From the NCBI GenBank assembly GCA_041660005.1, contig JBAZXG010000005.1:4064-68063 (forward strand): 64,000 nucleotides of DNA. The letters run 5' to 3'. The notes beneath the pieces are model-generated. The model had not been told where the DNA came from, searched no databases, and worked only from the letters and a program-made list of their open reading frames with translations. The translations under genes were made by a program, and so were the position numbers. This stretch comes from Patescibacteria group bacterium. Lineage in GTDB: Bacteria > Patescibacteriota > Patescibacteriia > GWA2-46-9. Below are positions 11,887 through 61,474 of this stretch, one piece after another; positions within the stretch are counted from its first letter, which is position 1; each line of letters opens with the position of its first letter.

Positions 11887-11890
11887 AGCA

Positions 11891-13276: not shown

Positions 13277-13283
13277 AACAACC

Positions 13284-16509: not shown

Positions 16510-16515
16510 ATAAAA

Positions 16516-18881: not shown

Positions 18882-18887
18882 ACCACT

Positions 18888-20003: not shown

Positions 20004-20006
20004 AAT

Positions 20007-46046: not shown

Positions 46047-46369
46047 AAAATAATAATATTTAAACCAAAAATAACGCTAACAAACAACGACTATTGATAT
46101 AATGACGTTTGTTTTTTCTTTTTATTTCGGCGAACAGAACCACTTTTAAAACACTGGCGCACTTATCAATTCCGTGGTTCTTTCCCCCTTTGAACCAAAC
46201 AAACGCTGTTATAAGGCACGTTGGCCTTAAAAAGTTAAGATGATTTGTGTATCTTCGTTTTCTGATATTGCCTGCTTTTCCGACCAAGGACTGCAACGAA
46301 GCACCTAATAGCTTAGTTAATAAAACCCCTGCTGTCAATAGAAAAATTAAATGGCCCTGTCGTATAATC

Positions 46370-46537
46370 TTATTGTCGAGGATAGCGAGTGAAGTGCGCA
46401 TAGCAAATATGCATTTCCGAGCGACGCAGGTATCAAAGGGTTTAATACCCCGCGTGGCTATGCCACGCTAACTCTCTCACTCCACCTAGCGGGTTGAGGA
46501 GTCCAGGGCTTTGCCCTGGGGTTTTATACCATTTATC
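46370..46537 (+). repeat. Copy 3 of ~170-nt structured intergenic repeat
   Basis: Near-identical to copy 2 (TTATTGTCGAGGATAGCGAGTGAAGTGCGCATAGCAAATATGCATTTCCGAGCGACGCAGG...). It lies in the 536-nt region between the giant gene start and the CAP-domain gene stop. A TATAAT hexamer lies immediately upstream (46363-46368). Confidence 0.8.
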
Positions 46538-46582
46538 CACAGTTTTTAACTAAAAAACCCAAGGAAAACGTATAAGTTAATC

Positions 46583-47776
46583 CTAAACGACCAGCAAAAA
46601 TACGGCTAAAACCACAACAGCAATTGAGTGGCTCACGAGAGATAGGTGGCGAATATGCAATTTTAGCGCAAATAGGTAGACCAGAATGCCTGCGGCCAAG
46701 AAGACGCTGAACGCCAGATAGATCATGCGCACTTTGTCGTTCAGGTTCCCGACCTTCAATAGCCCCCCAAAAAATGTGGTAAATCGCTCTGTTCCCTCGT
46801 TAAAAATGTAGAGCTGCTGCGTCTTTGAAACCGGCGCAACCAGAGCAATGGCTTTCGTTTCCAGATGCTTATCCGCCCCAGAAGCAACTAAGGTCAACTG
46901 TTCGCCATTACTAGACAGGGTGTTAGGGTCATACGGGATGCTGCCACTCCACACGCCGCTATCCGGTTGCGGCGCTAAATCACTTTCTACGCCCGCGAGC
47001 TGTGCCCGAACGGCCTCCGCCTTTGGCGCTTTTACGGCAACGGAAACAGATTTACCTTTCTGCTGGAGGACTAAACTAGATTCGTCAATAACGCTCGCCT
47101 TAACCACACTACTGGGATTTGTTACTACCGGCCCTGCGGCCAAGGTTGTTGCGGGATCACCAAACATCTGCACGACAAAAGTCGCGCTCACGCCCTCGTA
47201 CTCACCCGTTGCCGTACCCACGCCAATTTCGGTATATCCTGGGTTAATGATGTTCGCTCGGTGCGAAGCACTTGCCATCCATCCAGAATCGACGTCTTCA
47301 GCCGTGTGAAAGTTAACGGCCAAATTCTCACCGGCTTTGAGATAGTGGTATCCTGACGCCTTAATCCAATCCCAGGGTGTTTTTCCGTCAGGGCTGTTAT
47401 GCGCAAAATACGAATGTGCCAGCATGTCCCGCGCTTTGGCGTTCGCCGCGTCGGTTAATGCAGCATTTTTTTTCAATCCTTTTAATCCAAAATTCTTTCG
47501 CTCCTGATTAGTGAGTGAAATGATGTTCGCAGGCGTAATGGAGCTTGAAAAAAGACTGGACGAAGGCAAAGATAGCGGCGCGAGGACAACCAGCACCTTA
47601 AACAAAATAAGAATAACGCTATACCCCATGAGCACACGGTGCCGTAGTGCATGCGGTTTATAGCTATTTCCCGCGTGTGGAATCAGGTGGTCAAAGATCA
47701 CCTGGTAACCTTGCTTAGCATTACTATGCAAGCGGTTTTTCACTGGCGTTTTTTTGCGCATGGGTTCTTTGTTCAT
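46583..47776 (-). CDS. CAP (SCP/PR-1-like) domain membrane protein
   Basis: 397 aa. CAP motifs HSYFAHNSPDGKTPWDW and GENLAVN...GHYTQ-like HRANIINPGYTEIGVG. It has an N-terminal TM and two C-terminal TM helices. Confidence 0.75.
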   Translation of the reverse strand: MNKEPMRKKTPVKNRLHSNAKQGYQVIFDHLIPHAGNSYKPHALRHRVLMGYSVILILFKVLVVLAPLSLPSSSLFSSSITPANIISLTNQERKNFGLKGLKKNAALTDAANAKARDMLAHSYFAHNSPDGKTPWDWIKASGYHYLKAGENLAVNFHTAEDVDSGWMASASHRANIINPGYTEIGVGTATGEYEGVSATFVVQMFGDPATTLAAGPVVTNPSSVVKASVIDESSLVLQQKGKSVSVAVKAPKAEAVRAQLAGVESDLAPQPDSGVWSGSIPYDPNTLSSNGEQLTLVASGADKHLETKAIALVAPVSKTQQLYIFNEGTERFTTFFGGLLKVGNLNDKVRMIYLAFSVFLAAGILVYLFALKLHIRHLSLVSHSIAVVVLAVFLLVV

Positions 47777-47826: not shown

Positions 47827-48261
47827 CTAAATCGAGGCATCTGTCAATACGTTGCGTATTCTCTCTGCAATTTCTTTTGCTTCACCCGAACTATAGCTAG
47901 TATGACCCCATGATTGCAGGCCGTCATTGTCTTTTCTCGGTATGATATGTATGTGCATGTGACCAACCAGTTGACCTGCAGCTTTACCGTTATTAATGCC
48001 AACGTTGAATCCGTCTGCTTCTACGCCCAAAACAACCGACCTCGCAATGTTTGGTAAAGAGCTCATGAGATAAGCCAAACTTTTTTCATCAACAGAAAGT
48101 AAATCATTAGCGTGCGTTTTAGGAATCAGCAGCGTGTGCCCTTGACGAATAGGTTGAATATCGAGAAAGGCCAGAACTTCATCATCTTCATAAACTTTAT
48201 CACTCGGTAGTTCACCCGAAACGATTTTGCAAAAAACACAATTTTCCATACTGCTAAACAA
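47827..48261 (-). CDS. HIT family hydrolase
   Basis: 144 aa. Histidine-triad motif GHMHIHIIP and N-terminal CVFCKIV. Confidence 0.85.
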   Translation of the reverse strand: MFSSMENCVFCKIVSGELPSDKVYEDDEVLAFLDIQPIRQGHTLLIPKTHANDLLSVDEKSLAYLMSSLPNIARSVVLGVEADGFNVGINNGKAAGQLVGHMHIHIIPRKDNDGLQSWGHTSYSSGEAKEIAERIRNVLTDASI

Positions 48262-48589
48262 TCACGTAGGCTAGTAAAATAAGCAAAAACAATGCGACAG
48301 GGATGAGTAAGCTTGCTTGACCACTAAAACCCGCTGCGTAAAGTATAGCACCAGCAAGAATACCAACCAAAATCGATTTCACGACATAGGACTTTCCGTA
48401 ATCGATGGCAGGAGCGTTGAAGACAATCCACACACCATAAACAAAGAGAAAAGCAAAAACAACATACAAGTTGAGGTAACTCAAAACTAAGCCCGGACGC
48501 GCCAGTTCGGCGGCAGAATAAAAAAGAAAACTAACAAAAGCAATAAAGAATACGATGCTAAATTTTTTGTCTGAATATTGCAGGTGCAT
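48254..48589 (-). CDS. Hypothetical small membrane protein
   Basis: 111 aa with 3-4 TM. It overlaps the HIT gene start by 8 nt. Confidence 0.4.
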   Translation of the reverse strand: MHLQYSDKKFSIVFFIAFVSFLFYSAAELARPGLVLSYLNLYVVFAFLFVYGVWIVFNAPAIDYGKSYVVKSILVGILAGAILYAAGFSGQASLLIPVALFLLILLAYVIV

Positions 48590-48594
48590 ATATT

Positions 48595-49170
48595 TTATCG
48601 GGCTATGAGGCGACCTAGCCAGGACTGCACAACCGAGAGACTTAGCGCTTCACCGGCAAAGTTGACTCTTATACTATGAATTGCCGGACGCACACTAACC
48701 ATACTGAAATTGGGCGCTGAGATGATGAAGCGAACTCTGTTCTTCGACACTAAGGCCTCCGCTAACGAAAAGGTAAGGTCAGCACTTTGGGGGGCACTGC
48801 CATCAATGGGCATCAATTTTTTAATTTCGTAGCGCCAGGGTTCGTTTGGCGTTGGTGGCAGCGCCACACCTAGTCCAAGGGGCACAGAACTGGCATATAA
48901 GATACGTACGGTCGCGGATGACAACCTGCGCGGAAGGCGGACATCGAAATAAACTGGCTCGCCGCTCAGAACCGCGTATGGTTTCTCATTATTTCCTTGT
49001 TCAATGCCTACCCTGCCCTCAGGGTAGAGACGGCTCATGACGGGCTGCGATTTGGTAACATCGAGCGAAACAGCATACGTTCCCGTTGGCAGCGCGTCTT
49101 GGTAGAGCAGCCAGGCAAAAAACACAACCGGCAAGGCAGCAGCACAGCCAATGGCAATATTTTTTTTCAT
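48595..49170 (-). CDS. Hypothetical exported protein
   Basis: About 190 aa with an N-terminal signal/TM. The start is taken at M9 to avoid overlap with the upstream gene. Confidence 0.4.
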   Translation of the reverse strand: MKKNIAIGCAAALPVVFFAWLLYQDALPTGTYAVSLDVTKSQPVMSRLYPEGRVGIEQGNNEKPYAVLSGEPVYFDVRLPRRLSSATVRILYASSVPLGLGVALPPTPNEPWRYEIKKLMPIDGSAPQSADLTFSLAEALVSKNRVRFIISAPNFSMVSVRPAIHSIRVNFAGEALSLSVVQSWLGRLIAR

Positions 49171-50804
49171 AGATGAACGAGCGGATAAAGCCAAGCACCA
49201 TCGGGCAGTGCAAACGGTCGATGCAGAACCACTTGATACTGCTTTAGCAGCTCAACTGTTTCTGGTGTGACTCCCGTTAAGCTATAAAGGTAGAGCGGCA
49301 CATTATCAGCAATGGTAGGCAGCACGCGGATAACTTCAGTGTACGTTGTAAACGGTCGATCCCCAGGCGAAATAACGCTGCGCTCAGGAAAAAATATTTT
49401 ATCAATGCGGTCCCCTACTATAACCGAATCCGTTCCTGTTAATGCATTTACCGTTTGACTGACCGTTCTGTAGGTTGCTAGGCGACTAGCCACAACCGCT
49501 AGACCTTCCGATGAGTCAAAATAAACTTGCAAAAAACTGCTAAAACCGAGTACCAGTAGTAACACGAGAATCATGCTGCCGTTTTTATAAACGTTCCCTA
49601 ACAGGTGCATAACTCCATAACCAGCAAACGGCAGCCAAACTACAAATATCGGCAACCAATAGCGCACATAAGAAATGCCGAGTGTAATGTGCTGAGGGCC
49701 AACAGTATCGGCAATACGCCAACTTCCATAGTAAACACCGAGGGTTAAGGTCACCCAAACCGCCGCGTACACATATGAGCGCTCTTGTGCCGACCAGCGC
49801 TCGCGCTCTCTATAGCGAAGGTAACCGCCAAAAAACACAAGCATCCAAAATGGTAAGGTGACAAGAAAGCAATAGAAAAATACATTTGTAAGAATACTTA
49901 GTGGGTGAAAACCAAACGGCACTATGATACTGAGGAGAGAACTCACAATGTTGCCATGCGCCGTTAAGCTAGCAGCATTACGTACGGCTTGGTAGCCAAC
50001 CGGCAATGGTGCGTCGTACACCACAGTAAACAACAGAACAATAGTTGTCAGGAGCGCCGCACAAAGACTTCCTGCAATCACAATTTGCGGCAAACGAATG
50101 TGATGCCGCAGATGCCACAAACCAAATAATGCCAAAGGGAAAAGCCACAGGACTTCTGACGAACGCACGATGAGAGCGCCAACGAACATGATAATAGAAA
50201 AAATAAGCCACTCAACAGAGTTGCGCTCACGCTCTAAATGTACAAATCCCCACACGCTAAAAATGACGAGATCGAGAAATAAAATATTATGATAGAAACC
50301 ACGGCTGGCGTAATACCAAATCGCTGGGTGCATAGCAAGCAGTACCGTTGCGGCGAGAGCAACACTGACATTAAAAATGCACCGCCAGCAACCATAAGCT
50401 GCCATAAGCGCAAGTGCAGTCATGACTGCGGTGAGATATGGCAACACACCAAGTCCAAATACGAGAGCCGTCGCGCCGAAAATCATCGGCAGTCCCACGA
50501 AACTCGCTGGCACCAAATCATTTCCAACTGGAATGGTGGCGCGCGGATGGATTACACCGTTCGAAAGCGCTGAAAGCGGCTCAGGATAGCTGAGACCAAC
50601 GCCATTCGCAACTTGAAAACTAAAAAAGTAGTTGGCAGTTTCATCCGGGGAATTAAATCGCGGCGCCTGACGAATAGTCGCCCACGAAAAAAATGCGTAT
50701 GCAAAAAAGGCAACGAGCGTAATAGCCACGACATACACCCGTGGCTCTTTTGCCGCACCCTGCACAAACGCGCGCGCCCTGAGTATAAAAGTTTGAATCG
50801 TCAT
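49167..50804 (-). CDS. GT-C superfamily glycosyltransferase (ArnT/PMT-like), polytopic
   Basis: 545 aa with at least 11 TM. A conserved first-loop acidic motif NSPDETANYFF, typical of polyprenol-phosphate-sugar-dependent GT-C enzymes. Confidence 0.55.
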   Translation of the reverse strand: MTIQTFILRARAFVQGAAKEPRVYVVAITLVAFFAYAFFSWATIRQAPRFNSPDETANYFFSFQVANGVGLSYPEPLSALSNGVIHPRATIPVGNDLVPASFVGLPMIFGATALVFGLGVLPYLTAVMTALALMAAYGCWRCIFNVSVALAATVLLAMHPAIWYYASRGFYHNILFLDLVIFSVWGFVHLERERNSVEWLIFSIIMFVGALIVRSSEVLWLFPLALFGLWHLRHHIRLPQIVIAGSLCAALLTTIVLLFTVVYDAPLPVGYQAVRNAASLTAHGNIVSSLLSIIVPFGFHPLSILTNVFFYCFLVTLPFWMLVFFGGYLRYRERERWSAQERSYVYAAVWVTLTLGVYYGSWRIADTVGPQHITLGISYVRYWLPIFVVWLPFAGYGVMHLLGNVYKNGSMILVLLLVLGFSSFLQVYFDSSEGLAVVASRLATYRTVSQTVNALTGTDSVIVGDRIDKIFFPERSVISPGDRPFTTYTEVIRVLPTIADNVPLYLYSLTGVTPETVELLKQYQVVLHRPFALPDGAWLYPLVHL

Positions 50805-50826
50805 CGCTCTCTAGTACAATAATGTC

Positions 50827-52953
50827 ATGCATCTCAAAAAGTGGATAGTTATCCCCCACCTCGGCATTTCATTGCTTATTATCATGAACGCCTGTCTTTG
50901 GCGTTCGTCTGAAGTAGGCCTTATCTTGGGCATCGTGTATCTAGCTTTTTATGGATACGTACTTGGCGAATGCTGGTCTCGAACACTTTCGTCTTTTATC
51001 CGCTTCATAAGTGGTTTACTGCTCACACTGACGACCTTGGCGGGTTTGGGTGGCATTGTCTACTACCTCATTGGTCTGCCGAACTGGCTCGCCACAATCG
51101 TTCTCGTTGTCATTGCGTCTTCAATTGTTTTATTGAATTCCTGCATTGCTGAGGAAATCAGACCCACGCCTGACTCTATTATACCACAGAGCCAACACGG
51201 GCGAATGCAGATAATGGTAGCGTTTATTGGTGCGCTAGCCCTTGCTTTTGCGTTTTCTTTTCTTTTTAAAGCTCGCACCGGTGAAGCATTGCGATCGCCC
51301 TGGTCAGTAGTTGACGCGCGTTTTTTTGGCTGCTTCTTTATTGCTGAATTTTCCGCCTTACTTCTGCTCTGGACGGACAACAAGCGGAGAATGTTGCGTG
51401 ATTTTTTTGTTCTGTCGGCATTGACTACACTTGCCACAACCATCGGTATTATCGTCTACCGGGTTGGTTTTGGCTTTGATCCTTTTATCCATCAAGCCAC
51501 CGAATCACTCATCGCTACCGCAGGAGTCGTTTATCCTAAACCGCTCTACTACCTTGGCCAGTACGCTCTCGTTGTCCTGCTGCATACGCTGACCCTTCAA
51601 CCGATAGCGATCATAGACTCACTGCTCTTGCCGGCGGTTACCGGTCTCGCTCTTCCAGCACTTTTTATAACCACTTTCTACCATGACAATAACAAAAGAA
51701 CTGCTGCTTTAAGTGCAGCCACTTTTATTGGGATGCCGCTGTATCTTTTCGCCATGACGACACCCCAAGGCATCGCTAATCTTTTATTCGTTGCAGTAAT
51801 TTTTCTTGGCTACCGTAATGATTGCGATAAAGCAAGAACTAACCGTCAGTTCGAACTACTTCTTCTTGGTCTTTCAGTTACAGCAATGGTAATGCATCCG
51901 CTGGCAGGACTACCGGCACTTTTTTTTGTCGGACTGCGCTATATGCAAAACCGCTACCCGAAACAAAATATTATATATAGTCTGGCAGCGATAGCAGCTG
52001 CGGCTGTTTTGCCCATTATTTTTTTCATGCAAAACGCCGGTCGTGCTGGTGTGCAGGCTACAGCTACACTACCAACAATACCGGCTGAACAACTTTCGCG
52101 TGGCATTTTGTATTTCGGTCGACACTATAATTTTATCCTTGATACGGTTTATCTCTACGCCTTTAATCTTGGCGCTATTATTATTGCGCTCTTGTTAATC
52201 GGAATCTATCTGCTGAAGCGACAAGAAGAAGGCATTGCAGACAACAAATCGCTTTTGCTCATTTCGCTCATACTTTTCTTCGATGCGTTTATCGTTAAAT
52301 TTTTCATACCTTTTTTATTTCTTATAGACTATGAACGCAGTAACTTTAGTGGCCGCCTTTTCACGCTCGGGTTTATTGCGCTTTTGCCATTCGCCGTTAT
52401 AGCACTGCGCTCTTTTTTTGAACGTCTCACCAATGCACCACGAAGTGTTATTGTCTTTTTTTTGCTCACTCTCTCATGCCTCGCTACGATAAGCGTGTAT
52501 GTCGCCTATCCGCGCTTTGACACCTATGCTTTTGATCGCGGCTACTCAACAAGTCTCCACGATATTACTGCCGTAAGGTATATAGATTCAGTCGCAAGCG
52601 GCTCATACGTTGTTTTGGCCGACCAAGCGGTTGCCGCTGCAGCACTCAAGGAATTGGGGTTTAAGCAGTACTTCGCGCGACAGGGCAATAAAAGTAATGA
52701 GCAAATCTTTTTCTACCCTATTCCAACCGGCGGCTCACTTTACCAGGAGTACCTACGCATGGTCTACGAAAAACCAACGCGAGACCCTATTCGCTCGGCG
52801 CTTACCATGACCGGTGCAAATGAAGCGTATTTTGTGTTGAACGACTATTGGTTTGATTTTGAAAATATTCGCGACAGCGCAAAACAGTTTGCTGATGATT
52901 GGAAAGAAATTGATGGCGGGAAAATAGTCATCTTCCACTACAAAAAACTATAG
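50827..52953 (+). CDS. Large polytopic membrane protein, possible GT-C-like glycosyltransferase
   Basis: 708 aa, more than 12 TM, and a C-terminal soluble domain. It is divergent from the GT-C gene with only 22 nt between the start codons. Confidence 0.4.
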   Translation: MHLKKWIVIPHLGISLLIIMNACLWRSSEVGLILGIVYLAFYGYVLGECWSRTLSSFIRFISGLLLTLTTLAGLGGIVYYLIGLPNWLATIVLVVIASSIVLLNSCIAEEIRPTPDSIIPQSQHGRMQIMVAFIGALALAFAFSFLFKARTGEALRSPWSVVDARFFGCFFIAEFSALLLLWTDNKRRMLRDFFVLSALTTLATTIGIIVYRVGFGFDPFIHQATESLIATAGVVYPKPLYYLGQYALVVLLHTLTLQPIAIIDSLLLPAVTGLALPALFITTFYHDNNKRTAALSAATFIGMPLYLFAMTTPQGIANLLFVAVIFLGYRNDCDKARTNRQFELLLLGLSVTAMVMHPLAGLPALFFVGLRYMQNRYPKQNIIYSLAAIAAAAVLPIIFFMQNAGRAGVQATATLPTIPAEQLSRGILYFGRHYNFILDTVYLYAFNLGAIIIALLLIGIYLLKRQEEGIADNKSLLLISLILFFDAFIVKFFIPFLFLIDYERSNFSGRLFTLGFIALLPFAVIALRSFFERLTNAPRSVIVFFLLTLSCLATISVYVAYPRFDTYAFDRGYSTSLHDITAVRYIDSVASGSYVVLADQAVAAAALKELGFKQYFARQGNKSNEQIFFYPIPTGGSLYQEYLRMVYEKPTRDPIRSALTMTGANEAYFVLNDYWFDFENIRDSAKQFADDWKEIDGGKIVIFHYKKL

Positions 52954-53037
52954 CTGTGTTGATGGGCTCAAACTGTGCAGTTGCGCAGCTTGAGCCCACC
53001 GTTCGGTCATCTCCACTCCGCTCAGCCGAAAGCGAGA

Positions 53038-53478
53038 CTAGTCGACATTCGCAGGTGTCGCATGTTTCAGGGTTGACGTATCAAACACGCCAGCCCAAAC
53101 GGGGAAAGAGCTATCGGGGAAACCGAGCGCAGAGAGAACGTTCCTCGTTGCCGAGCATGGCAGGATGAAAACGGGCAGCTCACCGTTCTCGGCCCCCGTC
53201 ACCTCAGCCTGAATGTACAAGGTCGTATTGCAGTCGGCGTCCATGACCTCGACCGCAAGACCGAAACGAGATGCAATCTCGGTCACGGCCTCCGCCGGAA
53301 TTCTTGCGTCCGCATATCCCCTGAGGACGAATCGCTCTTTGTGCAAGGCCTGCGCAGCGTGACGCCACCGTTGAACAAAGACAGCTGCACCAACTGCCTG
53401 GGTCCGCAAAGCACGCTCATCGTCCTGCCTGTCAGCATCGATCCCAATGATTCCAAACCGCATGGTTAATCCTCCCAC
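53038..53478 (-). CDS. Hypothetical protein in a GC-rich (about 58-60%) segment
   Basis: 146-aa ORF MRFGIIGIDADRQDDERALRTQAVGAAVF... Composition differs clearly from the neighbours. No confident family assignment; an RNase-H-like GIDxD start is only suggestive. Confidence 0.45.
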   Translation of the reverse strand: MGGLTMRFGIIGIDADRQDDERALRTQAVGAAVFVQRWRHAAQALHKERFVLRGYADARIPAEAVTEIASRFGLAVEVMDADCNTTLYIQAEVTGAENGELPVFILPCSATRNVLSALGFPDSSFPVWAGVFDTSTLKHATPANVD

Positions 53479-53518
53479 TTTACAAACACCCGAAATTGGG
53501 TTTACTCAATCCTAGCAA

Positions 53519-54694
53519 TTAGTTTAAATCAGTCAACGCTATCAGTTCTTTGGAGTACTCTTTTGAGCCAACGCTTAAAGCCAAAATATTTTCACGAACA
53601 AACACGCGCGATTCTGCGCTCTCAGTAATGGCGCTCGCCAATGCTTCAGAGTCCCCCGGCGGAACTAACTTGGTATTTGGCGCTAAGCGTAAAAGCTCGG
53701 ACACGCCGCCAATGTCACTCGCCACAACGGGAACACCATGACTTAAGGCCTCGACAATACTCATGGGATTGTTTTCTATGAGTAACGACGGATACACAAA
53801 AACGTCAGTGACTTCCCAAATTGCCGCGAGCTGAATTTGCGACAAAAAACCAGAAACAATTATGCTACGGTCTTCAAGAGATGCTTTTTTTACTGCATGT
53901 AAGTAAGAACCAGCTCCAGCAAGAATTAACCGCCAGTGAGGTCGGCGAATTGTTTGCCAAACGTCAAGAAGTAACTGAATCCCCTTTTGCTCTTCTATTT
54001 GCCCAATGTAAACAACATTTATGCCCTTATGTTCTTTATGCACAACCGCAACGTCCGGCACCGGATTCATAAGAACCGACCGCTTCGCAACAGAAAAAAA
54101 ATGGTGCCCAGTATAAAAATCTTGAAGAAATTTTGACGGAAAAACAACGATTCCAACAGTGCGAAAAAGGTGCCGCGTTAGCGTACGGTACAGTATTCGA
54201 ATTGGTCGTGACAACTGCGTTTTTAGTTGTGCGACAAGCAATATACCGCTTGGCTCAACAAGCTGAACGTCATGCACAACTTGAATGTAGCGCTTTGCTC
54301 GCTTTGCAAAAAGACGCGGCAACAAGTAACCAAGTCCACGCAAATTGTGCGAGAGAACAAGGTCGGGTTGCTCACGACGCAACACTGCTCTTGTCACCAA
54401 CCAAGAATGAATGTTCATAACATCAAGACACCCCCAAATGGCGCGCGCGAAAAAACCATACGCATTTATGTTTACATACGAAAAAATATTCAGTGGAAAG
54501 AAGCGGAGCACCTTAATGCCCTCCTCTTCTTCTGCTACCGGCGTGAGTGAACGTATGCCATGAAAAGGTCTGACCGAAAGCACGCTCACCTCCCAGCCGA
54601 GCTCTTTGAATCCGTTCGCTGAGGCCTTCACAACGGTCTCTGCTCCTGACCGGTAGTACCGCCCGTACAAGTTACTGACAATTAAAACTTTCAT
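53519..54694 (-). CDS. Glycosyltransferase family 4
   Basis: 391 aa. GT-B fold with an EX7E-type C-terminal region (VVASDIGGVSELL). Confidence 0.75.
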   Translation of the reverse strand: MKVLIVSNLYGRYYRSGAETVVKASANGFKELGWEVSVLSVRPFHGIRSLTPVAEEEEGIKVLRFFPLNIFSYVNINAYGFFARAIWGCLDVMNIHSWLVTRAVLRREQPDLVLSHNLRGLGYLLPRLFAKRAKRYIQVVHDVQLVEPSGILLVAQLKTQLSRPIRILYRTLTRHLFRTVGIVVFPSKFLQDFYTGHHFFSVAKRSVLMNPVPDVAVVHKEHKGINVVYIGQIEEQKGIQLLLDVWQTIRRPHWRLILAGAGSYLHAVKKASLEDRSIIVSGFLSQIQLAAIWEVTDVFVYPSLLIENNPMSIVEALSHGVPVVASDIGGVSELLRLAPNTKLVPPGDSEALASAITESAESRVFVRENILALSVGSKEYSKELIALTDLN

Positions 54695-55836
54695 AGAACG
54701 AGCCCCAAAAGCTCAAGTAATTTTTTACGAACCACGGGTTCACTATATTCTTCCTCAACAATTATTCTACCCCGCTCTCCGTAACGCTTTGCAACTGCAG
54801 GGCGACTCAACAAGTGAATGAGCGCCGCAGACAGCGCCTCGACACTCTTTGGCTCCACAAGTTGGCCAGTTTCACCGTCTCGCACAACACGACGAAGCCC
54901 TGGCAAATGAGAGGCAACGGTGGCACGAGCGCTCGCCATGGCTTCAAGGAGCACTAACCCAAACGCCTCAGAGGCGTCAATAGAGGGCAGAACCACCACA
55001 TCAGCGAGTCGATAGTGTTCAGGAAGCATATCGCCCGAAACGCTACCTAGAAAACCAACTGAATCTGCAATCCTGAGATGCTTTGCTTCCGCTTCATAAC
55101 GCACTCGCCGATCACCGTCACCTACGAGTAGTAATTTAGCATTCGGTACTTCTCGCACAACTTCTTGCCATGATTTTAATAAAACTGAAATACCTTTGAA
55201 ATAGTGCGCGCCATCAAGCCCTCCAACAAAAAGTGCGACAGGCGTGTCTTTGGTAAACCCATACTCTGCCAAGAGATGATCTGGCTTTGGGCCGGGAGAA
55301 AAAAGAGCCGTGTTAACCGACAGTGGTAGTTCACGCAAACGACCCCCAATGCTCGGCAAGTACTGAGCAAGGAGAGAGTGCTCAGCATAGTCGACTGAAC
55401 TCACCAGAATTAAATGCGCATGATCAAGAAGCGGCTTCAAATAACGGCGATGATACAACTTAAATAATAATTTTTTCCAACCAACTCCTACGTTGTCCAT
55501 GTGATAGAAAAGAACGAGTTTCTGATTTGCAGCAACTCCACGACGGGCGTACCCTTGTGCGCCACCAAAAAACGGATAGTTGAGGATAACTATTTCGGCG
55601 CCAGTCGTAAGATCCGGAAAGTTTGGGATAATTGCCGCATTGCCGTAACGAAATAACGTTTTAACATAAATCACTTTTACTGCTCCGCCCTCAACGCTCT
55701 CCGGTTTTGGTGCCGACGTATACACATTAACCTGAATACCCTCTTGGCTTAGTGCGCGCGCCTGACTCGCAGCCACATTACCCATGCCGCCGCCATAGGG
55801 CGGATAGGTTGAGACAACAATGTTTACGCGTTTCAT
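54691..55836 (-). CDS. Glycosyltransferase family 4
   Basis: 381 aa. N-terminal STYPPYGGGMGNVAASQARAL with a GT-B fold. It overlaps the neighbouring GT4 by 4 nt. Confidence 0.75.
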   Translation of the reverse strand: MKRVNIVVSTYPPYGGGMGNVAASQARALSQEGIQVNVYTSAPKPESVEGGAVKVIYVKTLFRYGNAAIIPNFPDLTTGAEIVILNYPFFGGAQGYARRGVAANQKLVLFYHMDNVGVGWKKLLFKLYHRRYLKPLLDHAHLILVSSVDYAEHSLLAQYLPSIGGRLRELPLSVNTALFSPGPKPDHLLAEYGFTKDTPVALFVGGLDGAHYFKGISVLLKSWQEVVREVPNAKLLLVGDGDRRVRYEAEAKHLRIADSVGFLGSVSGDMLPEHYRLADVVVLPSIDASEAFGLVLLEAMASARATVASHLPGLRRVVRDGETGQLVEPKSVEALSAALIHLLSRPAVAKRYGERGRIIVEEEYSEPVVRKKLLELLGLVL

Positions 55837-55845
55837 ACGTTCGAG

Positions 55846-56943
55846 TTACCAAAAAATAACTGAGCGAATAATGCGCCAATATCCAGCCAAAAGCGGGTTC
55901 ACTATTCTGAGCGGCAGTGAAGGGACAGTCTGATACTCTACCACTGCACTCATCGTACGTATCACGTCACGATCTTTTGTCTTACGCATTGATTGACGAC
56001 GAGAGCGCTCTTTCATAATTTCTGAAAAATGAACAATAACATAGAGGTAACCCTTAAGCTTCAAAGGAAGCCATCCTTTCAAAGTAGCAAACAGCACAAC
56101 GCCAATTTCCATAACGAACCAGGCGGGAAAGATGAGCAACAGTGTCGCGAGATGGTAATTCTCGAGAAGCACGATGAGACGATTTCGCTCACCATAATAA
56201 TACTTGATGCGCGTGGAGCGGCTAAATTCGTAGCGATGATAAGCGCGTGCACTAGGCACGAGAACGCTTTGTTTACCAAAAAGCGATATGCGCCAGCCCA
56301 AATCCAGGTCTTCGTGGTACATAAAAAAATCTTCCGAAAAAAGACCAAACTGATTGAGGTCAAGCATTTTAAGCACGAGAGCCGCACCTGAGGCATAAGC
56401 AACCCGACGCGGCTCTTTAAGGTATCGCTGCATGGCCGTGCTGTTCATGTTCGTACCTTCTCGGTCACTATAGCCAAAACCGAGGTAGTGAATGCAGTTG
56501 CCAGCCGAATTAACGACGTCTCGGTTCTGATCAAGGAGAATTAAGGGCTGCGCCGCCGTTGCTTCGCTATGCGCCTCAAGGTAGTCAATAAGTTGACTAA
56601 ACATAGAGGCCTCAACAAAACAATCTTGGTTGATGAGCGCCAGGTAAACCGCACCAATTTTTTTCGCCTCCTCGTACCCACGAAGACAAGCCCCGGTAAA
56701 CCCTAAATTATTTTCATGCTCAATAATGTTGAGCGTCGGATACTTAGCTCGCGCACGCTGAACACCCACATCACTACTATGATTATCTACGAGAATGATT
56801 TCTAAATTATCGTAATCCGAAAGCATAAGCGCTTCCAGACATCGCTCCAGATCATTGCCGCCGTTAAAACTCGGCACAACAACCGCCAGGCGCAATCTTT
56901 TATTCTGATTCTTGTCTGTCACTGGCTGCATGGTGTTCTTCAA
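55846..56943 (-). CDS. Glycosyltransferase family 2 with C-terminal TM region
   Basis: 365 aa. GT-A start VVVPSFNGGNDLERCLEAL...VDNHSSD with DxD and C-terminal membrane helices. Confidence 0.75.
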   Translation of the reverse strand: MKNTMQPVTDKNQNKRLRLAVVVPSFNGGNDLERCLEALMLSDYDNLEIILVDNHSSDVGVQRARAKYPTLNIIEHENNLGFTGACLRGYEEAKKIGAVYLALINQDCFVEASMFSQLIDYLEAHSEATAAQPLILLDQNRDVVNSAGNCIHYLGFGYSDREGTNMNSTAMQRYLKEPRRVAYASGAALVLKMLDLNQFGLFSEDFFMYHEDLDLGWRISLFGKQSVLVPSARAYHRYEFSRSTRIKYYYGERNRLIVLLENYHLATLLLIFPAWFVMEIGVVLFATLKGWLPLKLKGYLYVIVHFSEIMKERSRRQSMRKTKDRDVIRTMSAVVEYQTVPSLPLRIVNPLLAGYWRIIRSVIFW

Positions 56944-57250
56944 GTGCTCGTTGACGTACGAGCTCCGTTAACGAACGCTCCAGGCGATCGGTCTTCCGGG
57001 ACTGCTGAAAAAAAGCATAAAAAAGGACAAGCACCGACGTATAAAGAACTGCATCAACTCCACGTCCAACCCCCAAGATGCGTGCTGCAACGTCCGTGGT
57101 CTTTGGCAAAAAAACAATCAAAACCGTTGCTACCCAAAAGAGAAGCCAAATCAAGAGCTTTCGTCGATCAAGCGATCCGCTGCGATACGCACGTAGTGCC
57201 CGAGAGACCGCAAAGAGCGCAAAAAGTGTAATCAGCCATTGTATGGGCAT
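56900..57250 (-). CDS. DUF2304-like small membrane protein
   Basis: 116 aa with 3 TM and a charged C-terminal tail. The typical genomic partner of GtrB-like GT2. Confidence 0.5.
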   Translation of the reverse strand: MPIQWLITLFALFAVSRALRAYRSGSLDRRKLLIWLLFWVATVLIVFLPKTTDVAARILGVGRGVDAVLYTSVLVLFYAFFQQSRKTDRLERSLTELVRQRALEEHHAASDRQESE

Positions 57251-57253
57251 AGC

Positions 57254-57931
57254 TTAGCGATGAGGAAAAAATTTCTCAATCACAAGATCCCGAACGATTG
57301 TTAAAGCGTTTACTGACGACTGCCCGTGCGCTAACGAGTACGGCGTGTAATGCACCGTAACCGGTACTTCAACATAGCGCAATTTGAGGTCAGCAATACC
57401 ATCAAGTATTTCCGAAGCGTGAGCCCAGCCATCATGACGTATAGGTAGCTTCGTTGCCGCAGAACGGGAAAATGCTCGAAGACCATTGTTGGTATCGCTC
57501 AAATAAATGCCAGAGAAGAATCGTGTAAAAAGAATGCCTGCCTTTAAAAGAATGCGCCTCTTCAATGGAAGATTGACCGCATGACCAAGAAAGCGCGACC
57601 CTAAAACAATGTCAGCCCTGCCGTCACGAATCGGTTCAGTAAGCAGAGTGATATCGTGCGCATCATGCTGCCCATCTGCATCGAAATGAACAATAATGTC
57701 TGCACGCTCCTCTAGGGCAAGCGCCACGCCAGTTGCCAGAGCTGCCCCCTGGCCACGGTTAATGCTGTGGCACAAAACTACTGCTCCCGCGCTCCTTGCG
57801 AGAGAAGTCGTGGCATCATTAGAGCCGTCGTCAACGACAATCACTTCGTCAACATATCTGCGCACGTCGGTTACCACATCATAAATGCCGCGCGCCTCGT
57901 TATAGGCCGGAATGACGGCAATCGTTCGCAT
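57254..57931 (-). CDS. Polyprenol-phosphate sugar synthase (GtrB/DPM1-like GT2)
   Basis: 225 aa. MRTIAVIPAYNEARGI...VVDDGSNDAT, a dolichol-P-mannose/undecaprenyl-P-glucose synthase-like catalytic core. Confidence 0.75.
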   Translation of the reverse strand: MRTIAVIPAYNEARGIYDVVTDVRRYVDEVIVVDDGSNDATTSLARSAGAVVLCHSINRGQGAALATGVALALEERADIIVHFDADGQHDAHDITLLTEPIRDGRADIVLGSRFLGHAVNLPLKRRILLKAGILFTRFFSGIYLSDTNNGLRAFSRSAATKLPIRHDGWAHASEILDGIADLKLRYVEVPVTVHYTPYSLAHGQSSVNALTIVRDLVIEKFFPHR

Positions 57932-57937
57932 ACGAAC

Positions 57938-58960
57938 CTATGACGCGCCGAGTTTTACGAGCCCTCGACCCGCTTTTAAGTCTTCTACTGTCTTTGCTAA
58001 ACCGTCCTTCAATAATGTTACCGGAAACCAGCTCAAATTTTCTTTGGCGCGAGTTATATTTGGAATAAGACGTGGATGATACCCATCTGGGTAATCTGGG
58101 CGCACCATAATGCGAACCTCTTCTTCAACGAGCGTCATCATCATGCGCGCGAGCTCAGTCAGCTGCAAAGCTTGATCGCTGCCAATGTTAACCGGCTGCT
58201 CGTCACCTGCGCTCATCAAGCGGATTAACCCTTTGACCGTATCGCTAACGTAGCAAAATGACCCCACGGCTTCGGACCCGCCGTAGATAATAACTTCTTT
58301 CCCTTTGAAAATATTTTGTAAAAATTCAGTTACCACATTCGAGTCATCGAGCCGCATGCGCGGCCCATAAGAAGAAAAAACGCGGGCAATCCGTACGTTG
58401 AGACCATAATTCCTGCGATACGATTCAACCAGCGCTTCCCCGAAACGCTGCGCCACAGCAAAGGCGCTGTAGTTATCAATGTGCGGCACTATCCCTTCAG
58501 CGCTCTCGCTAACACGTCCGCTGCCGTTTACCACCTGGCCATAAGTCGCATCTGACGAGACATAGCAAAAAATCGCCTTGCTCTCTTTGGCAAGATCCAG
58601 CGCATAGCGCAGTCCCACAGAATTGACCATCATGGTCTCTATGGGAAATCGTTCAACGTCGCTGCGCGAAGACGGGGAAGCCAAAAAATAAACTTCTTGA
58701 ACGCCTTGCCATGCCGCTTTAAATTTCTGTAAGGCACGTTCTTCTCCCGACAAAGAGAATGGCTCAGTAATATCATGGCGTATAAAAGCAAAGTCCGGAT
58801 TTTCAAGCAGGTGGTCAATGTTTTGCTCGCTCCCCGTCAAAAAATTATCAAGACAAATGACTTTTGATGTTTTGACCAGTTCATCACAGAGATGCGATCC
58901 TATAAAACCGGCGCCACCAATGACCAGTACGTTTTTTTTCTCAAAAATTGTTTTCGCCAT
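57938..58960 (-). CDS. NAD-dependent epimerase/dehydratase (extended SDR; UDP-sugar epimerase/decarboxylase-like)
   Basis: 340 aa. Rossmann start VLVIGGAGFIGSHLCDEL with YxxxK. Confidence 0.75.
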   Translation of the reverse strand: MAKTIFEKKNVLVIGGAGFIGSHLCDELVKTSKVICLDNFLTGSEQNIDHLLENPDFAFIRHDITEPFSLSGEERALQKFKAAWQGVQEVYFLASPSSRSDVERFPIETMMVNSVGLRYALDLAKESKAIFCYVSSDATYGQVVNGSGRVSESAEGIVPHIDNYSAFAVAQRFGEALVESYRRNYGLNVRIARVFSSYGPRMRLDDSNVVTEFLQNIFKGKEVIIYGGSEAVGSFCYVSDTVKGLIRLMSAGDEQPVNIGSDQALQLTELARMMMTLVEEEVRIMVRPDYPDGYHPRLIPNITRAKENLSWFPVTLLKDGLAKTVEDLKAGRGLVKLGAS

Positions 58961-58981
58961 GATGCATGATAAGAATGTATT

Positions 58982-59386
58982 CTAAGTCTCTAAAGTATAG
59001 CGAAAAACCCACTTTTTAGCGAATAGGAAGTTCCAGCACAGCGCTACAATCAAAATGGCTAACACCTTTGCTGCGAGATCATAGATATGGATAGTTTCCA
59101 CAAAAAGCGCTAAAAGAAGATTTTGCCATAGAATGCCAAGGCCGTAGACCGTTAAAAATTTGCCGTACCGACTCAGTGACAGTGGCGCTGGGTGGCGAAA
59201 GGTCCAGAGATGGTGCAGGGTGTAAGCAACGCTTGCCCCCAAAAACGAAGTTCCAACACTCGTCGCCAAATAGTGTGCGTAAAAAAACGGGATAAGACGA
59301 GTAAGCAAACTATAGCTACCAAAGTCAGCCACAGCAGAAGTTGCGCCGACGCTAGCAAAACGAAACAGTTGAGTCAGAAGCTCCAT
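58982..59386 (-). CDS. GtrA family membrane protein (polyprenol-P-sugar flippase-like)
   Basis: 134 aa, 4 TM. GtrA N-terminus QLFRFASVGATSAVADFGSY. Confidence 0.7.
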   Translation of the reverse strand: MELLTQLFRFASVGATSAVADFGSYSLLTRLIPFFYAHYLATSVGTSFLGASVAYTLHHLWTFRHPAPLSLSRYGKFLTVYGLGILWQNLLLALFVETIHIYDLAAKVLAILIVALCWNFLFAKKWVFRYTLET

Positions 59387-59395
59387 AGTGACACC

Positions 59396-61474
59396 CTATC
59401 TCAGTACCGCAACATTAATGCCAGCTCGGTAATACTGGTTATAGGCAAAGAATTGCCCAATCACTTTTCCTTGTGGTGTAAAGATTCGCACCTGCGGACC
59501 GCCGCCAGTTAGTGGCGCAATAACAATTTCATCAACGCCATCACTCGTAACATCACCAACACTCAACGAAACGCCGCCACGAAAGGTCTCCGGCAAAACA
59601 AAAAACTGATTCAACATTCGTCCGAAGCCATTAAATAGGCGCACTTGCGGACCACCGCCAGCCACGGGTGCAATAGCAATTTCTGCCTGTCCGTTTCCGT
59701 CTAAGTCTCCGCTTGCAACATTCACGCCGCCACGATAGGTCGGGTACGGGTACCATTCGCGAAGCAAATTTCCTTGGTCGTTGAACACACGCACGGGCAG
59801 GAATAAAGTTGTTGAGCTGACAATAATTTCATCTTTACCATCACCATTAACATCACCCGCCGCAACGCTAAACCCGCCGCGCAAGTTTTTGTCGTAGGCG
59901 AAAAATTGTGTGCGCAAGTTGCCGCCCCGATCGAAGACGCGAATCTGCGGACCGCTAGCGTTCGCCGCGGCTACAATAATACTGCCAACGCCGTCGCCAA
60001 ATATGTTACCGGCTGCAACGTTAATACCACTTCGGATGGGACGACTAAACGCGTACCACTGCGACAACGTTTCTCCATTTGTTGAAAGCATACGCACCCG
60101 ACCGAGCCCACTCTGCCCTTCGCCGATAATTATTCTCTGGTCGCCCCGTATAATGGCGCTTATGCGCACGCCACCATCTTCCGGAACGGAACGAGAATTT
60201 TCACTGACCGCAATGCCGCCTCCGCCGACAAAATCCTTACCGTAAACGGACCAGTTGTGCTGCATGGAGCCGTCGTTAAAAAACAGCTTGAGCTGCGGTT
60301 CATATAGTGTGTGCGCAACGGTGATAATGCGGCCAGCGGTGTTTGCCAAAGCCACAGGAGGAACTCTCGCAGGTGCCTCTGCGCCGAGTAAGGCACGACT
60401 GGCATCTACCCGCCCAACACCGAGCTTGCCAGTATAACCGTGATTCACCGTACTGATGTCGTCAGCACTTTTTAATAAAATATCGGTAATCTGAGCGTTC
60501 GTCAGTGTGGGATGAGCCGATTTTATAAGCGCCGCCACGCCAGTTACAACAGGCGCAGCAACAGACGTCCCAGACCAGCCGCCACCATAAGCATCGGTAA
60601 GACCTCTGGCAATGTCATACACTTCTGTGCTAAAAAAAAGCGTTCCCGGTGCAACAATATCCACGCAGCTTCCATAGTTTCCTGTCAGCAACCGCTGGTC
60701 CAGTGTATCAGTAGCGCCAACGCCGAGAATCCAATTTTCTTTTGCTCCGCTGTCAAAACAAACCGGGTAACGCGGGGATTGATCAAGGTTGCCGCCCGTA
60801 CCGTCGTTGTTGCCCGCAGCAACCACAATGAGAACGCCAGCATCATAGGCACGTCTTACCGCAGCATACAAACGATTACTATATCCCAGTCCAACAAAAC
60901 TTAAGTTAATGATGTCGGAACCATTCTTGACTGCGTAATCAACGGCGTCTGCTACGATATTAACGTCGCCCTCCCCTTTTGAGTCGAGAACTCTGAGCGG
61001 CATAATGCGCGTGTGCCAAGCAAGACCCGCAATGCCTTCAACATTATTTCCCGCCGCTGCAATAATTCCGGAAACAACCGTACCGTGATTCAGCGCTGTT
61101 CTACTAAACGGCGGCGTTGCATCAGGCCGTGGGTCTGCGGTACTTGAAACGAAGTCCCATCCGTTGACGTCGTCAATATATCCATTACCATCATTGTCTT
61201 TTCCGTCACCGGCAATTTCGCCGGGGTTTCGCCAAATATTTTCCCGAAGATCGGGGTGGTAAATATCAACACCGGTATCAAGAACTGCCACGACGACGTC
61301 TGGTACTCCCGTCGTTGTTTCCCACGCCGCAGGCGCACCAATTTGCTGCAAGTACCATTGCTTCGGATAGTAAACGTCGTTTGGGTCAAAGGCAGCAAGG
61401 ACTGGCTGACCAACAAACAGAAGAGTCAAGGATAAACCAATACATTTATTTAAAGTACACAAAAAATGTCTCAT
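59396..61474 (-). CDS. Secreted S8 (subtilisin-like) peptidase fused to FG-GAP/beta-propeller repeats
   Basis: 692 aa with a signal peptide. Catalytic triad blocks VLDTGVD, HGTVVSGIIAA, GTSVAAPVVTGVAALI. The C-terminal half carries repeated FG-GAP-like motifs (VAAGDVNGDGKDEIIVS, VASGDLDGNGQAEIAIAP, LSVGDVTSDGVDEIVIAP). Confidence 0.85.
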   Translation of the reverse strand: MRHFLCTLNKCIGLSLTLLFVGQPVLAAFDPNDVYYPKQWYLQQIGAPAAWETTTGVPDVVVAVLDTGVDIYHPDLRENIWRNPGEIAGDGKDNDGNGYIDDVNGWDFVSSTADPRPDATPPFSRTALNHGTVVSGIIAAAGNNVEGIAGLAWHTRIMPLRVLDSKGEGDVNIVADAVDYAVKNGSDIINLSFVGLGYSNRLYAAVRRAYDAGVLIVVAAGNNDGTGGNLDQSPRYPVCFDSGAKENWILGVGATDTLDQRLLTGNYGSCVDIVAPGTLFFSTEVYDIARGLTDAYGGGWSGTSVAAPVVTGVAALIKSAHPTLTNAQITDILLKSADDISTVNHGYTGKLGVGRVDASRALLGAEAPARVPPVALANTAGRIITVAHTLYEPQLKLFFNDGSMQHNWSVYGKDFVGGGGIAVSENSRSVPEDGGVRISAIIRGDQRIIIGEGQSGLGRVRMLSTNGETLSQWYAFSRPIRSGINVAAGNIFGDGVGSIIVAAANASGPQIRVFDRGGNLRTQFFAYDKNLRGGFSVAAGDVNGDGKDEIIVSSTTLFLPVRVFNDQGNLLREWYPYPTYRGGVNVASGDLDGNGQAEIAIAPVAGGGPQVRLFNGFGRMLNQFFVLPETFRGGVSLSVGDVTSDGVDEIVIAPLTGGGPQVRIFTPQGKVIGQFFAYNQYYRAGINVAVLR

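Follow-up and report, generated by a model that had tools for sequence, protein, structure and literature searches.

What does a bacterium of the Patescibacteria, or candidate phyla radiation (CPR), build on its surface, and with which enzymes? Experiments have revealed next to nothing about the cell surface of these organisms, although their episymbiotic lifestyle depends on it. The question is raised here by positions 49167-59386 of a 64,000-nucleotide stretch of DNA from the metagenome-assembled genome of a Patescibacteria group bacterium (contig JBAZXG010000005.1; the whole stretch is hereafter the window). An initial annotation had described this region as a polyprenol-phosphate-sugar-based surface glycosylation locus next to an rml operon and a giant adhesin. 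Every gene that it listed is present at the coordinates given, with domains backed by Pfam and NCBIfam scans. In this report, we find that the region is probably the core of a conserved Patescibacteria locus for envelope-glycan assembly, in which cytoplasmic and extracytoplasmic glycosylation are combined. Its most novel element is a CPR-wide, unannotated family of membrane proteins with the GT-C (glycosyltransferase C) fold.

The representative of this family in the window is a 708-residue protein (50827-52953, plus strand), identical to an NCBI entry named only "hypothetical protein" (WC817_04260 [Patescibacteria group bacterium]). Neither the single sequence nor a profile matches anything in Pfam, NCBIfam or the PDB sequences. 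When its AlphaFold2 model (pLDDT 91.7, pTM 0.93) is compared, the fold is recognizable: the top PDB match in Foldseek is AftA (E 7.7e-4, probability 1.0, TM-scores 0.46/0.51), followed by AglB and the C-mannosyltransferase DPY19, beyond which the matches are at chance level. AftA has extra transmembrane (TM) helices before its GT-C core and a C-terminal alpha/beta sandwich that covers the active site; its catalytic residue is D128, at the first of the long extracytoplasmic loops, with R132, four positions further along, as its partner (PMC10265970). The layout of the 708-residue protein is the same. Hydropathy predicts approximately seven TM helices and then an outside loop of 36 residues that has at its start a motif containing D218 and H222, D218 starts a predicted helix in the model, and an alpha/beta domain occupies the C-terminus (about 570-708). 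The positive-inside rule places loop 183-192, with four Lys/Arg, inside and hence loop 212-247 outside. The motif, G214-x-G216-x-D218-x-F220-x-H222 (consensus GYGFDPFIHQATE), is invariant in the family; other invariant residues include P313-Q314, P358/G361/P363 and R510. Membership in the AftA/GT85 family itself (AftA_N, PF12250) was considered and rejected: there is no Pfam match, profile searches do not retrieve AftA from the PDB, and hhalign gives a probability of 0.8% against the AftA_N-positive proteins of four related loci (L025, L041, L063 and L072).

A hidden-Markov-model scan of 1.84 billion representative proteins, clustered at 50% identity, revealed 1,615 clusters of this family at E<=1e-3 and 1,043 at E<=1e-30. 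All named members are from Patescibacteria, and all are called "hypothetical". The family is compact, and no bridge to a named family occurs among the 150 matches listed, all of which are strong members. No description of the family in CPR, or of the gene cluster, was found in a literature base that is itself incomplete, such that this is an absence of evidence only.

The second large polytopic protein, of 545 residues (49167-50804, minus strand), belongs to a known family. It passes the Pfam PMT_2 model (PF13231) narrowly, at 28.2 bits against a gathering score of 26.1 (E 2.5e-6); most of its homologs have the same precomputed match, and the NCBI name is "glycosyltransferase family 39 protein". 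The initial annotation had pointed out an SPDE loop motif, like those of ArnT and the protein O-mannosyltransferases (PMTs), in one of the two proteins. We locate it at residues 52-55 of the 545-residue protein, about 10 residues past TM1 (23-41) in a 55-residue first extracytoplasmic loop (hydropathy scan), and P53, D54 and E55 are invariant among 57 homologs. The AlphaFold2 model made from the alignment of these 57 sequences (pLDDT 93.2) has 24 Foldseek matches in the PDB at E<=1e-3. All are GT-C proteins (TM-scores 0.43-0.57), among them yeast and human STT3, PglB, AglB, ALG9/ALG12, AftA, ArnT and Pmt4. A small alpha/beta domain of about 90-115 residues forms the C-terminus. Searches of the PDB sequences with this family, as single sequences and as profiles, gave nothing meaningful.

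The two proteins are also related to each other. Their families align in hhalign at 95% probability (E 2.9e-8) over 326 columns, residues 220-561 of the 708-residue protein against 84-428 of its neighbor, a match that marks them as distant paralogs. Both have an invariant acidic residue in an extracytoplasmic loop, and D54/E55 and D218 are candidate catalytic bases. From sequences and models, we conclude that both are GT-C-fold proteins and presumptive enzymes, the shorter one a member of a known family and the longer one of a family named in no database.

One challenge to this conclusion is that the region could be an ordinary cytoplasmic cluster for a wall or capsule polysaccharide, with the polytopic proteins serving as transporters, polymerases or ligases (Wzx/Wzy/WaaL-like). 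GT4 and GT2 glycosyltransferase genes beside rml genes are typical of such clusters, the 708-residue protein has no family, and its sole Pfam signal is a sub-threshold one to ABC-2 (E 0.0096). But the top three fold matches of that protein are GT-Cs, and transporters match it only at E>0.1 with probability <0.2. Sugar transporters match the 545-residue model only at E>0.07, whereas all 24 of its matches at E<=1e-3 are GT-Cs. Further, the acidic loop residues are invariant, and the synthase of GacI/PpgS type, the DUF2304 protein and the GtrA protein described below would be superfluous if the pathway were purely cytoplasmic. We disfavor this explanation as highly improbable. The fold searches support GT-C status for both polytopic proteins, which for the 708-residue one had been only a guess; neither of the outcomes named in advance as contradicting it (proteins classifying as transporters, or an ordinary cell-wall cluster devoid of an extracytoplasmic transferase) was encountered.

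The arrangement of the genes is as distinctive as the proteins. The 708-residue gene is the only plus-strand gene between two minus-strand operons. The first starts 22 bp upstream of it and is divergent from it, as had been remarked of the two large proteins; it comprises, in order of transcription, the 545-residue GT-C gene, genes for a 199-residue protein (48595-49194) and a 111-residue protein (48254-48589), and a HIT-family gene (47827-48261; PF01230, 97 bits). The second, on which the 708-residue gene converges, is transcribed in the order S8/FG-GAP subtilase (59396-61474), GtrA (58982-59386), short-chain dehydrogenase/reductase (SDR; 57938-58960), 225-residue GT2 (57254-57931), DUF2304 (56900-57250), 365-residue GT2 (55846-56943), and the two GT4 genes, here GT4b (54691-55836) and GT4a (53519-54694). 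Intergenic distances in this series run from a 44-bp overlap to 21 bp, and because they are so small we read these genes as a single operon. A scan for promoters and terminators returned only background levels.

Is this arrangement maintained in other genomes? When one genome per GTDB species was scanned with a sequence pattern, the 708-residue family turned up at no fewer than 521 loci. The best 80 of these were taken with 10-kb flanks, and all of their open reading frames (ORFs) were assigned by best match; where a count is confined to informative loci, only those with enough flank are included (68, 61 or 50, with at least 8 kb for the 61 and the 50). In every locus, the 708-residue gene is the sole inverted gene among minus-strand neighbors. 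The 545-residue GT-C gene lies upstream and divergent in 62/80 loci, and the divergent pair is found in 54 of the 68 informative ones. For the remaining genes, the counts per 80 loci are 47 for GT4a, 42 for GT4b, 32 for the SDR, 30 each for DUF2304 and the synthase, 29 for the subtilase, 21 for the 199-residue protein, 19 for rmlB, 18 for HIT, 17 for the 365-residue GT2, and 4 for GtrA. Among the 50 informative loci, the synthase is present in 29, the subtilase in 27 and DUF2304 in 26, with the SDR in the same 26-29 range. The operon GT4-GT4-(GT2)-DUF2304-synthase-SDR-subtilase occurs in about 55% of informative loci, and the rml genes, HIT and the two small membrane proteins in about a third. 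Because dozens of species-level genomes repeat this gene order, the locus is more than a chance assembly. Named records that contain it are from Uhrbacteria, Falkowbacteria, Buchananbacteria, Parcubacteria and "Patescibacteria group", and the nearest relative is a Candidatus Uhrbacteria locus (L001), with 50% identity for the 708-residue protein and 57% for the 545-residue protein. Many loci are titled "uncultured Gammaproteobacteria bacterium" (e.g., L051, OZ246416.1) and one "Candidatus Methylomirabilis". These titles look like placeholder or mis-binned names, as the gene order matches that of the named CPR records.

The locus appears to encode the means of making a lipid-linked donor for the GT-Cs. 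The 225-residue GT2 has no TM helix by hydropathy, its acidic motifs are intact (VVDDGSND, FDADGQH), and it matches Glycos_transf_2 at 82 bits. Its best NCBIfam match is PpgS (196 bits, E 5.5e-58, profile positions 5-223 of 226), followed by AglJ at 87 bits; the dolichol-phosphate mannose synthase structure 5mlz scores 47 bits. The initial annotation had called it a GtrB/DPM1-like synthase. The assignment to the polyprenyl-phosphate sugar synthases holds, but the protein is of the short GacI/PpgS type, which does not have TM helices of its own. The DUF2304 partner that had been noted beside it (PF10066, 85.5 bits; GacJ/Rv3632 family) is encoded 3 bp downstream, and the two genes are adjacent in 30/80 related loci. 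In characterized systems, the DUF2304 protein GacJ increases the Vmax of GacI by orders of magnitude and reduces its Km for undecaprenyl phosphate, and Rv3632 stimulates PpgS (bioRxiv 10.1101/180810). GtrA is a 134-residue protein with approximately four TM helices that matches PF04138 at 71.3 bits (gathering score 26.1), and it is a candidate flippase for the polyprenyl-phosphate sugar. GtrA makes the three-component set of this genome complete in the sense of PMC11127046. Our best guess for the sugar that the synthase loads is an N-acetylhexosamine.

The locus also has its own cytoplasmic glycosyltransferases. GT4a matches Glyco_trans_1_4 (96 bits) and Glycos_transf_1 (83 bits), and GT4b matches the latter at 125 bits. 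The nearest solved relatives of GT4b by sequence are an SPS-like protein (84 bits), PimA (75 bits), MshA (70 bits) and PimB' (55 bits, over the full length), and MshA is its best NCBIfam match; GT4 similarities of this order are family-generic and fall far short of every equivalog cutoff. The 365-residue GT2 (Glycos_transf_2, 63.6 bits) has a C-terminal TM pair predicted at about 256-286. It shows a weak rhamnosyltransferase/MftF-like similarity, with TIGR03965 at 61 bits and TIGR01556 at 48 bits, both far below cutoff, and its closest solved relatives offered no useful lead. All four genes of dTDP-L-rhamnose synthesis are present upstream on the minus strand, as had been stated: rmlA (36915-37649; NTP_transferase, 200 bits), rmlD (37646-38560; RmlD_sub_bind, 230 bits) and rmlB (39114-40115; GDP_Man_Dehyd/Epimerase, 261/211 bits) are strong matches, and the rmlC-like gene (38564-39103) is marginal (dTDP_sugar_isom, 29.4 bits vs 27). 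Their connection to the glycosylation locus is supported by proximity that is kept in other genomes: within 10 kb of the GT-C pair, rmlB is found in 19/80 loci and rmlA and rmlD in 15/80 each.

Two small membrane proteins follow the 545-residue GT-C. The 199-residue protein, whose gene overlaps the 3' end of the GT-C gene, has no Pfam or NCBIfam match; hydropathy indicates one N-terminal TM helix and an extracytoplasmic domain of about 170 residues. Its homologs, some of about 500 residues, are encoded directly downstream of the GT-C in 21/61 loci. The 111-residue protein, also free of Pfam matches, has homologs at the same position in 21/61 loci. A hydropathy scan predicts four TM helices for the version in the window, and its relatives keep a two-TM core with a PGFV motif. 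Both proteins are candidate accessory subunits. We dropped the idea that the 111-residue protein is a GtrA-like flippase, as the conserved core has only two TM helices. The HIT gene is upstream of the pair in 17/61 loci and is kept between rmlB and the GT-C operon.

Taken together, these components suggest the following pathway. At the cytoplasmic face, the two GT4 enzymes and the membrane GT2 would build a lipid-linked glycan, the acceptor or a part of it, from nucleoside-diphosphate sugars, with dTDP-rhamnose from the nearby rml genes probably among the donors. The short GT2 would charge polyprenyl phosphate with one sugar, stimulated by DUF2304 as GacI is by GacJ and PpgS by Rv3632. GtrA would then flip the polyprenyl-phosphate sugar outward, a task that in most relatives would fall to another flippase. 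Finally, the two GT-Cs, with D54/E55 and D218 as putative bases, would move the sugar from the lipid donor to the acceptor outside the membrane. The sequence of lipid-linked sugar, flipping and GT-C transfer had been proposed in the initial annotation; its parts are all present, and the scheme finds support at the level of extracytoplasmic glycosylation.

Several observations weigh against this interpretation. The 225-residue GT2 reaches only about half of the PpgS equivalog cutoff of 370 bits, so it receives no N-acetylgalactosamine assignment. Only 5 of the 50 informative relatives have GtrA in the cluster. The SDR, whose closest solved relative is human UXS1 (UDP-xylose synthase; 174 bits), has an intact NAD motif, but in this genome it reads F-A-V-A-Q in place of the catalytic YxxxK, and the Ser/Thr...YxxxK pattern of active SDRs is therefore missing. 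The protein of L001 reads Y-A-V-A-E, and 29 other orthologs keep Y-D-E-G-K (Y-D-L-G-K in one). The SDR in the window may thus be a pseudo-enzyme, having undergone a lineage-specific loss of Tyr and Lys: the epimerase/dehydratase of the initial annotation is there, and it is UXS-like, but it lacks these catalytic residues. In addition, the Glu of the UXS "STSE" motif, which is the decarboxylase residue, is absent from all orthologs by our reading of the alignment. In the relatives, too, the SDR may therefore be no decarboxylase but an epimerase. No Wzx, Wzy, ABC exporter or LCP ligase is recurrent within 10 kb on either side in the 80 loci or is found in the whole window, and the same holds for an initiating phosphoglycosyltransferase; the MraY gene of the window (15454-16509) belongs with the peptidoglycan genes. 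With these enzymes missing, a complete polysaccharide pathway cannot be reconstructed. The 80 loci are the best matches to the query from the window, biased to its relatives, and not a random sample of the phylum. Beyond the fold and family assignments, the scheme is one that we infer.

What, then, receives the sugar? One candidate is a protein. Under this alternative, the GT-C or GT-Cs would place a lipid-linked sugar or oligosaccharide on secreted or surface proteins, after the model of PMT/Ppm1 or of AglJ/AglB, and the targets could be the giant adhesin, the subtilase, type IV pilins or an S-layer. The 545-residue protein is in PMT_2 and has the NCBI name GT39, its best fold matches are oligosaccharyltransferases, and AglJ, at 87 bits, is the second NCBIfam match of the synthase. 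Haloferax AglJ initiates on a polyprenyl monophosphate, and a start of this kind would fit a locus with no phosphoglycosyltransferase. Surface-protein and pilus genes are nearby, and the secreted subtilase is co-conserved in the operon. However, the preponderance of oligosaccharyltransferases among the fold matches partly reflects the number of such structures, and ALG9/12, AftA and ArnT score similarly. The WWD motif of STT3, PglB and AglB (WWDYG in the C-terminal domain) is in neither GT-C translation, and a Pfam scan detected no MIR domain of the PMTs. The conserved rml, GT4 and GT2 content of the locus, together with the phosphatidyltransferase and the extra AftA_N GT-C of the relatives, points to glycan or glycolipid acceptors instead. 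We regard protein glycosylation as unlikely.

The adhesin deserves separate mention, as it had been proposed as the adjacent glycosylation target. This 1940-residue protein (40224-46046, minus strand) has SdrD_B, SpaA and TSP3 domains. Its description as rich in Ser/Thr/Gly stretches is borne out mildly by its composition (T 12%, S 9%, G 13%), but only one short S/T-dense stretch is present, near 614-700. The proposed check on its co-conservation with the locus has a negative outcome: among the 80 loci, a homolog is beside the cluster only in L001, the closest relative. In other lineages, rmlB is close to HIT with no adhesin between them (e.g., L006, L037), a proximity that marks positions 40224-47776 (the adhesin, a CAP protein and a 113-residue ORF) as an insertion into an older cluster, common only to L001. 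A specific link between the adhesin and the locus is accordingly not supported. The secreted protein that is co-conserved is the subtilase (Peptidase_S8, 169.5 bits), which has an N-terminal hydrophobic segment and C-terminal FG-GAP repeats, is the first gene of its operon, 9 bp upstream of gtrA, and keeps this position in 27 of the 50 informative loci. It would be a better protein target than the adhesin. The end of the adhesin, GPGCY followed by a hydrophobic segment and RGRRNGQNH, looks like a C-terminal anchor or sorting signal of undefined type.

We therefore return to a glycan acceptor. Most likely, the locus makes its own acceptor, either a wall glycopolymer or a lipoglycan anchored in the membrane, and the acceptor is not the adhesin. 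This preference follows from three considerations: the cluster has its own cytoplasmic glycosyltransferases; genes for a phosphatidyltransferase, which would act on a head group, and for AftA_N proteins join it in relatives; and neither GT-C has the accessory domains of oligosaccharyltransferases or PMTs. The companions emerged when all ORFs of the 80 loci were clustered and representatives were scanned for domains. A CDP-alcohol phosphatidyltransferase (PF01066, 110 bits) is encoded exactly between the divergent GT-C genes in 25/80 loci (e.g., L043:9285-9899 and L074:9355-9969, both minus strand), and a TM-anchored S-adenosylmethionine-dependent methyltransferase occupies that place in 10 others. 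Four Buchananbacteria-type loci have a third GT-C between HIT and the 111-residue gene, and its AftA_N domain (37.6 bits vs 26.7) is bona fide (L072:5433-7130, minus strand; L025:4314-6035; L041:5882-7576; L063:4857-6632). A WbaP-type phosphoglycosyltransferase, which we count as a hint toward a glycolipid or glycopolymer, is found in only 2/80. Other companions are DUF4012 (22 of the 80 loci), DUF11 (16), PEGA (12), FdtA, NUDIX and VanZ (6 each); of the companion families, only PEGA occurs in the window.

A more specific version of the same proposal names the acceptor as a phospholipid-anchored lipoglycan of the mycobacterial type, that is, like phosphatidylinositol mannosides, lipomannan and lipoarabinomannan (PIM/LM/LAM). 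The GT4 enzymes would glycosylate a phospholipid head group, as PimA and PimB' do, and after flipping the GT-Cs would extend the product in the manner of PimE, MptA/B and EmbC. That the locus lacks both an exporter and an initiating phosphoglycosyltransferase fits such a PIM/LM-like product, or else a start on polyprenyl monophosphate. The phosphatidyltransferase between the GT-C genes of 25 relatives, the similarity of GT4b to PimA, MshA and PimB', and the coexistence of several GT-Cs with a polyprenyl-phosphate sugar synthase in a locus lacking exporter and polymerase genes all agree with it, as do the PIM-like genes proposed for a Saccharibacterium (PMC6031116). But a search of the whole 64-kb window found no CDP-alcohol phosphatidyltransferase, the GT4 similarities are the family-generic ones noted above, and the locus contains neither an acyltransferase nor an inositol-phosphate synthase. 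The rml linkage also fits poorly, as these conserved genes have no known role in PIM/LM synthesis. On balance, an acceptor of precisely this type seems somewhat unlikely.

A bolder interpretation can be put forward tentatively, and with more doubt than confidence: that the 708-residue protein founds a Patescibacteria-restricted GT-C family at the CAZy level, and that this family, with its PMT_2 paralog, the small membrane partners and the GacI/J-type donor module, makes a major, lineage-specific envelope glycoconjugate. Its nature could be that of a lipoglycan or of a secondary wall polymer, perhaps with rhamnose as a constituent. If true, this would be the first defined surface-polymer pathway of these ultra-small episymbionts, and one that might determine contact with the host. 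Apart from this, the locus is a concrete and widely conserved gene set for a CPR surface glycoconjugate, and it makes surface composition directly testable. It brings to notice a GT-C-fold family labelled only "hypothetical" in spite of comprising more than 1,000 clusters at 50% identity and occurring in at least 521 species genomes; it names residues for mutagenesis (D54/E55, D218, H222 and R510); and it offers a donor module suited to assays in E. coli membranes. A tempting but unsupported link to the neighboring giant adhesin is also corrected. What is gained is a new family together with a pathway open to testing; the mechanism is of known type, and no new principle is involved.

The surroundings of the locus can be described briefly. 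Between the 708-residue gene and GT4a is a 141-residue ORF (53038-53463, minus strand) with a strong GGAGGA ribosome-binding site and a GC content of 57.7% (GC3 62.7%), compared with 45-50% for its neighbors. Like the 199- and 111-residue proteins, HIT and the subtilase, it was missing from the initial annotation. Its sole match among 5.8 billion proteins is its own copy from the same 103-kb source contig. An unrelated 158-residue ORF stands at this spot in L001, and the conserved cluster thus seems to have a variable site for insertions here. Elsewhere, the window contains peptidoglycan, Sec and type IV pilus genes. A peptidoglycan/division block with MraY, FtsW, MurG, MurC and MurB (10786-16881, minus strand) adjoins a type IV pilus set of a PilB-like ATPase, PilC, PilM, PilN and PilO (17109-22172, plus strand). 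Further upstream are SecA and SecDF, with a 613-residue SecD that has an inserted peptidyl-prolyl isomerase domain (Rotamase, 84 bits).

How does the locus compare with known systems? Its closest analogs are GacI/J/K/L of Streptococcus pyogenes and, in mycobacteria, PpgS/Rv3632/Rv3779 together with AftA and Rv3789, which is GtrA-like. The former, which serves the side chain of the rhamnose-rich group A carbohydrate, shares with it a short soluble GT2, an adjacent DUF2304 activator, GT-C transfer outside the membrane, and linkage to rml, GT4 and GT2 genes. However, the ABC exporter (GacD/E), GacH and a Wzx-like GacK have no counterparts in our locus, where the flippase candidate is of GtrA type; there are two GT-Cs rather than one, one of them from an unclassified family; a subtilase is in the operon; and no rhamnan-polymerizing set was identified. 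In Mycobacterium tuberculosis, PpgS (Rv3631) and its partners place galactosamine on arabinogalactan, and Rv3779 is the GT-C acceptor enzyme of that system. PpgS is the top curated family for our synthase, Rv3632 is a DUF2304 homolog, AftA is the closest solved fold of the 708-residue protein, and a GtrA-family protein is present in both. On the other hand, the PpgS match is below cutoff, and we see no sequence similarity to AftA or other solved GT-Cs, nor to the AftA_N family of the related loci. Genes for decaprenylphosphoryl arabinose (DPA) or arabinan are lacking, and a Patescibacterium has no mycolate envelope.

Three other systems are more distant. Like GtrA/GtrB/Gtr* (and CsbB/GtcA/YfhO), the locus combines a synthase, a small flippase and a GT-C that would use a polyprenyl-monophosphate sugar. 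GtrB-type synthases have C-terminal TM helices of their own, whereas that of the locus has none and uses DUF2304; further, the locus is chromosomal and widely conserved, not a seroconversion cassette, and has two GT-Cs among cytoplasmic glycosyltransferases. The ArnA/ArnC/ArnT/ArnEF pathway for lipid A aminoarabinose resembles it in a UXS/ArnA-like SDR beside a GT2 synthase, in small membrane proteins, and in an ArnT-like PMT_2 GT-C. But the ArnB aminotransferase, formyltransferase, deformylase and Ugd are lacking, the SDR has neither the decarboxylase Glu (from the alignment) nor the catalytic Tyr and Lys, and this group of organisms has no lipid A. The PIM/LM/LAM pathway (PgsA1, PimA, PimB', Ppm1, PimE, MptA/B) has in common with it two GT4s, a polyprenyl-phosphate sugar synthase, several GT-Cs, the lack of an exporter and, in 25/80 relatives, a CDP-alcohol phosphatidyltransferase in the cluster. 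It differs in that the window has no such phosphatidyltransferase and the locus no acyltransferase, in the linkage to rml genes, and in that neither GT87 nor PimE-type enzymes were matched at the family level.

Related observations have been made elsewhere in the CPR: Peribacteria genomes have rhamnose genes and many genes resembling dolichol-phosphate-mannose synthases (PMC4736985), and PIM-like glycolipids have been proposed in a Saccharibacterium (PMC6031116). What sets the present locus apart from all of the systems compared is its combination of features: without an exporter, it unites a conserved divergent pair of paralogous GT-Cs, one of them unclassified, with two small membrane partners and a subtilase in the operon.

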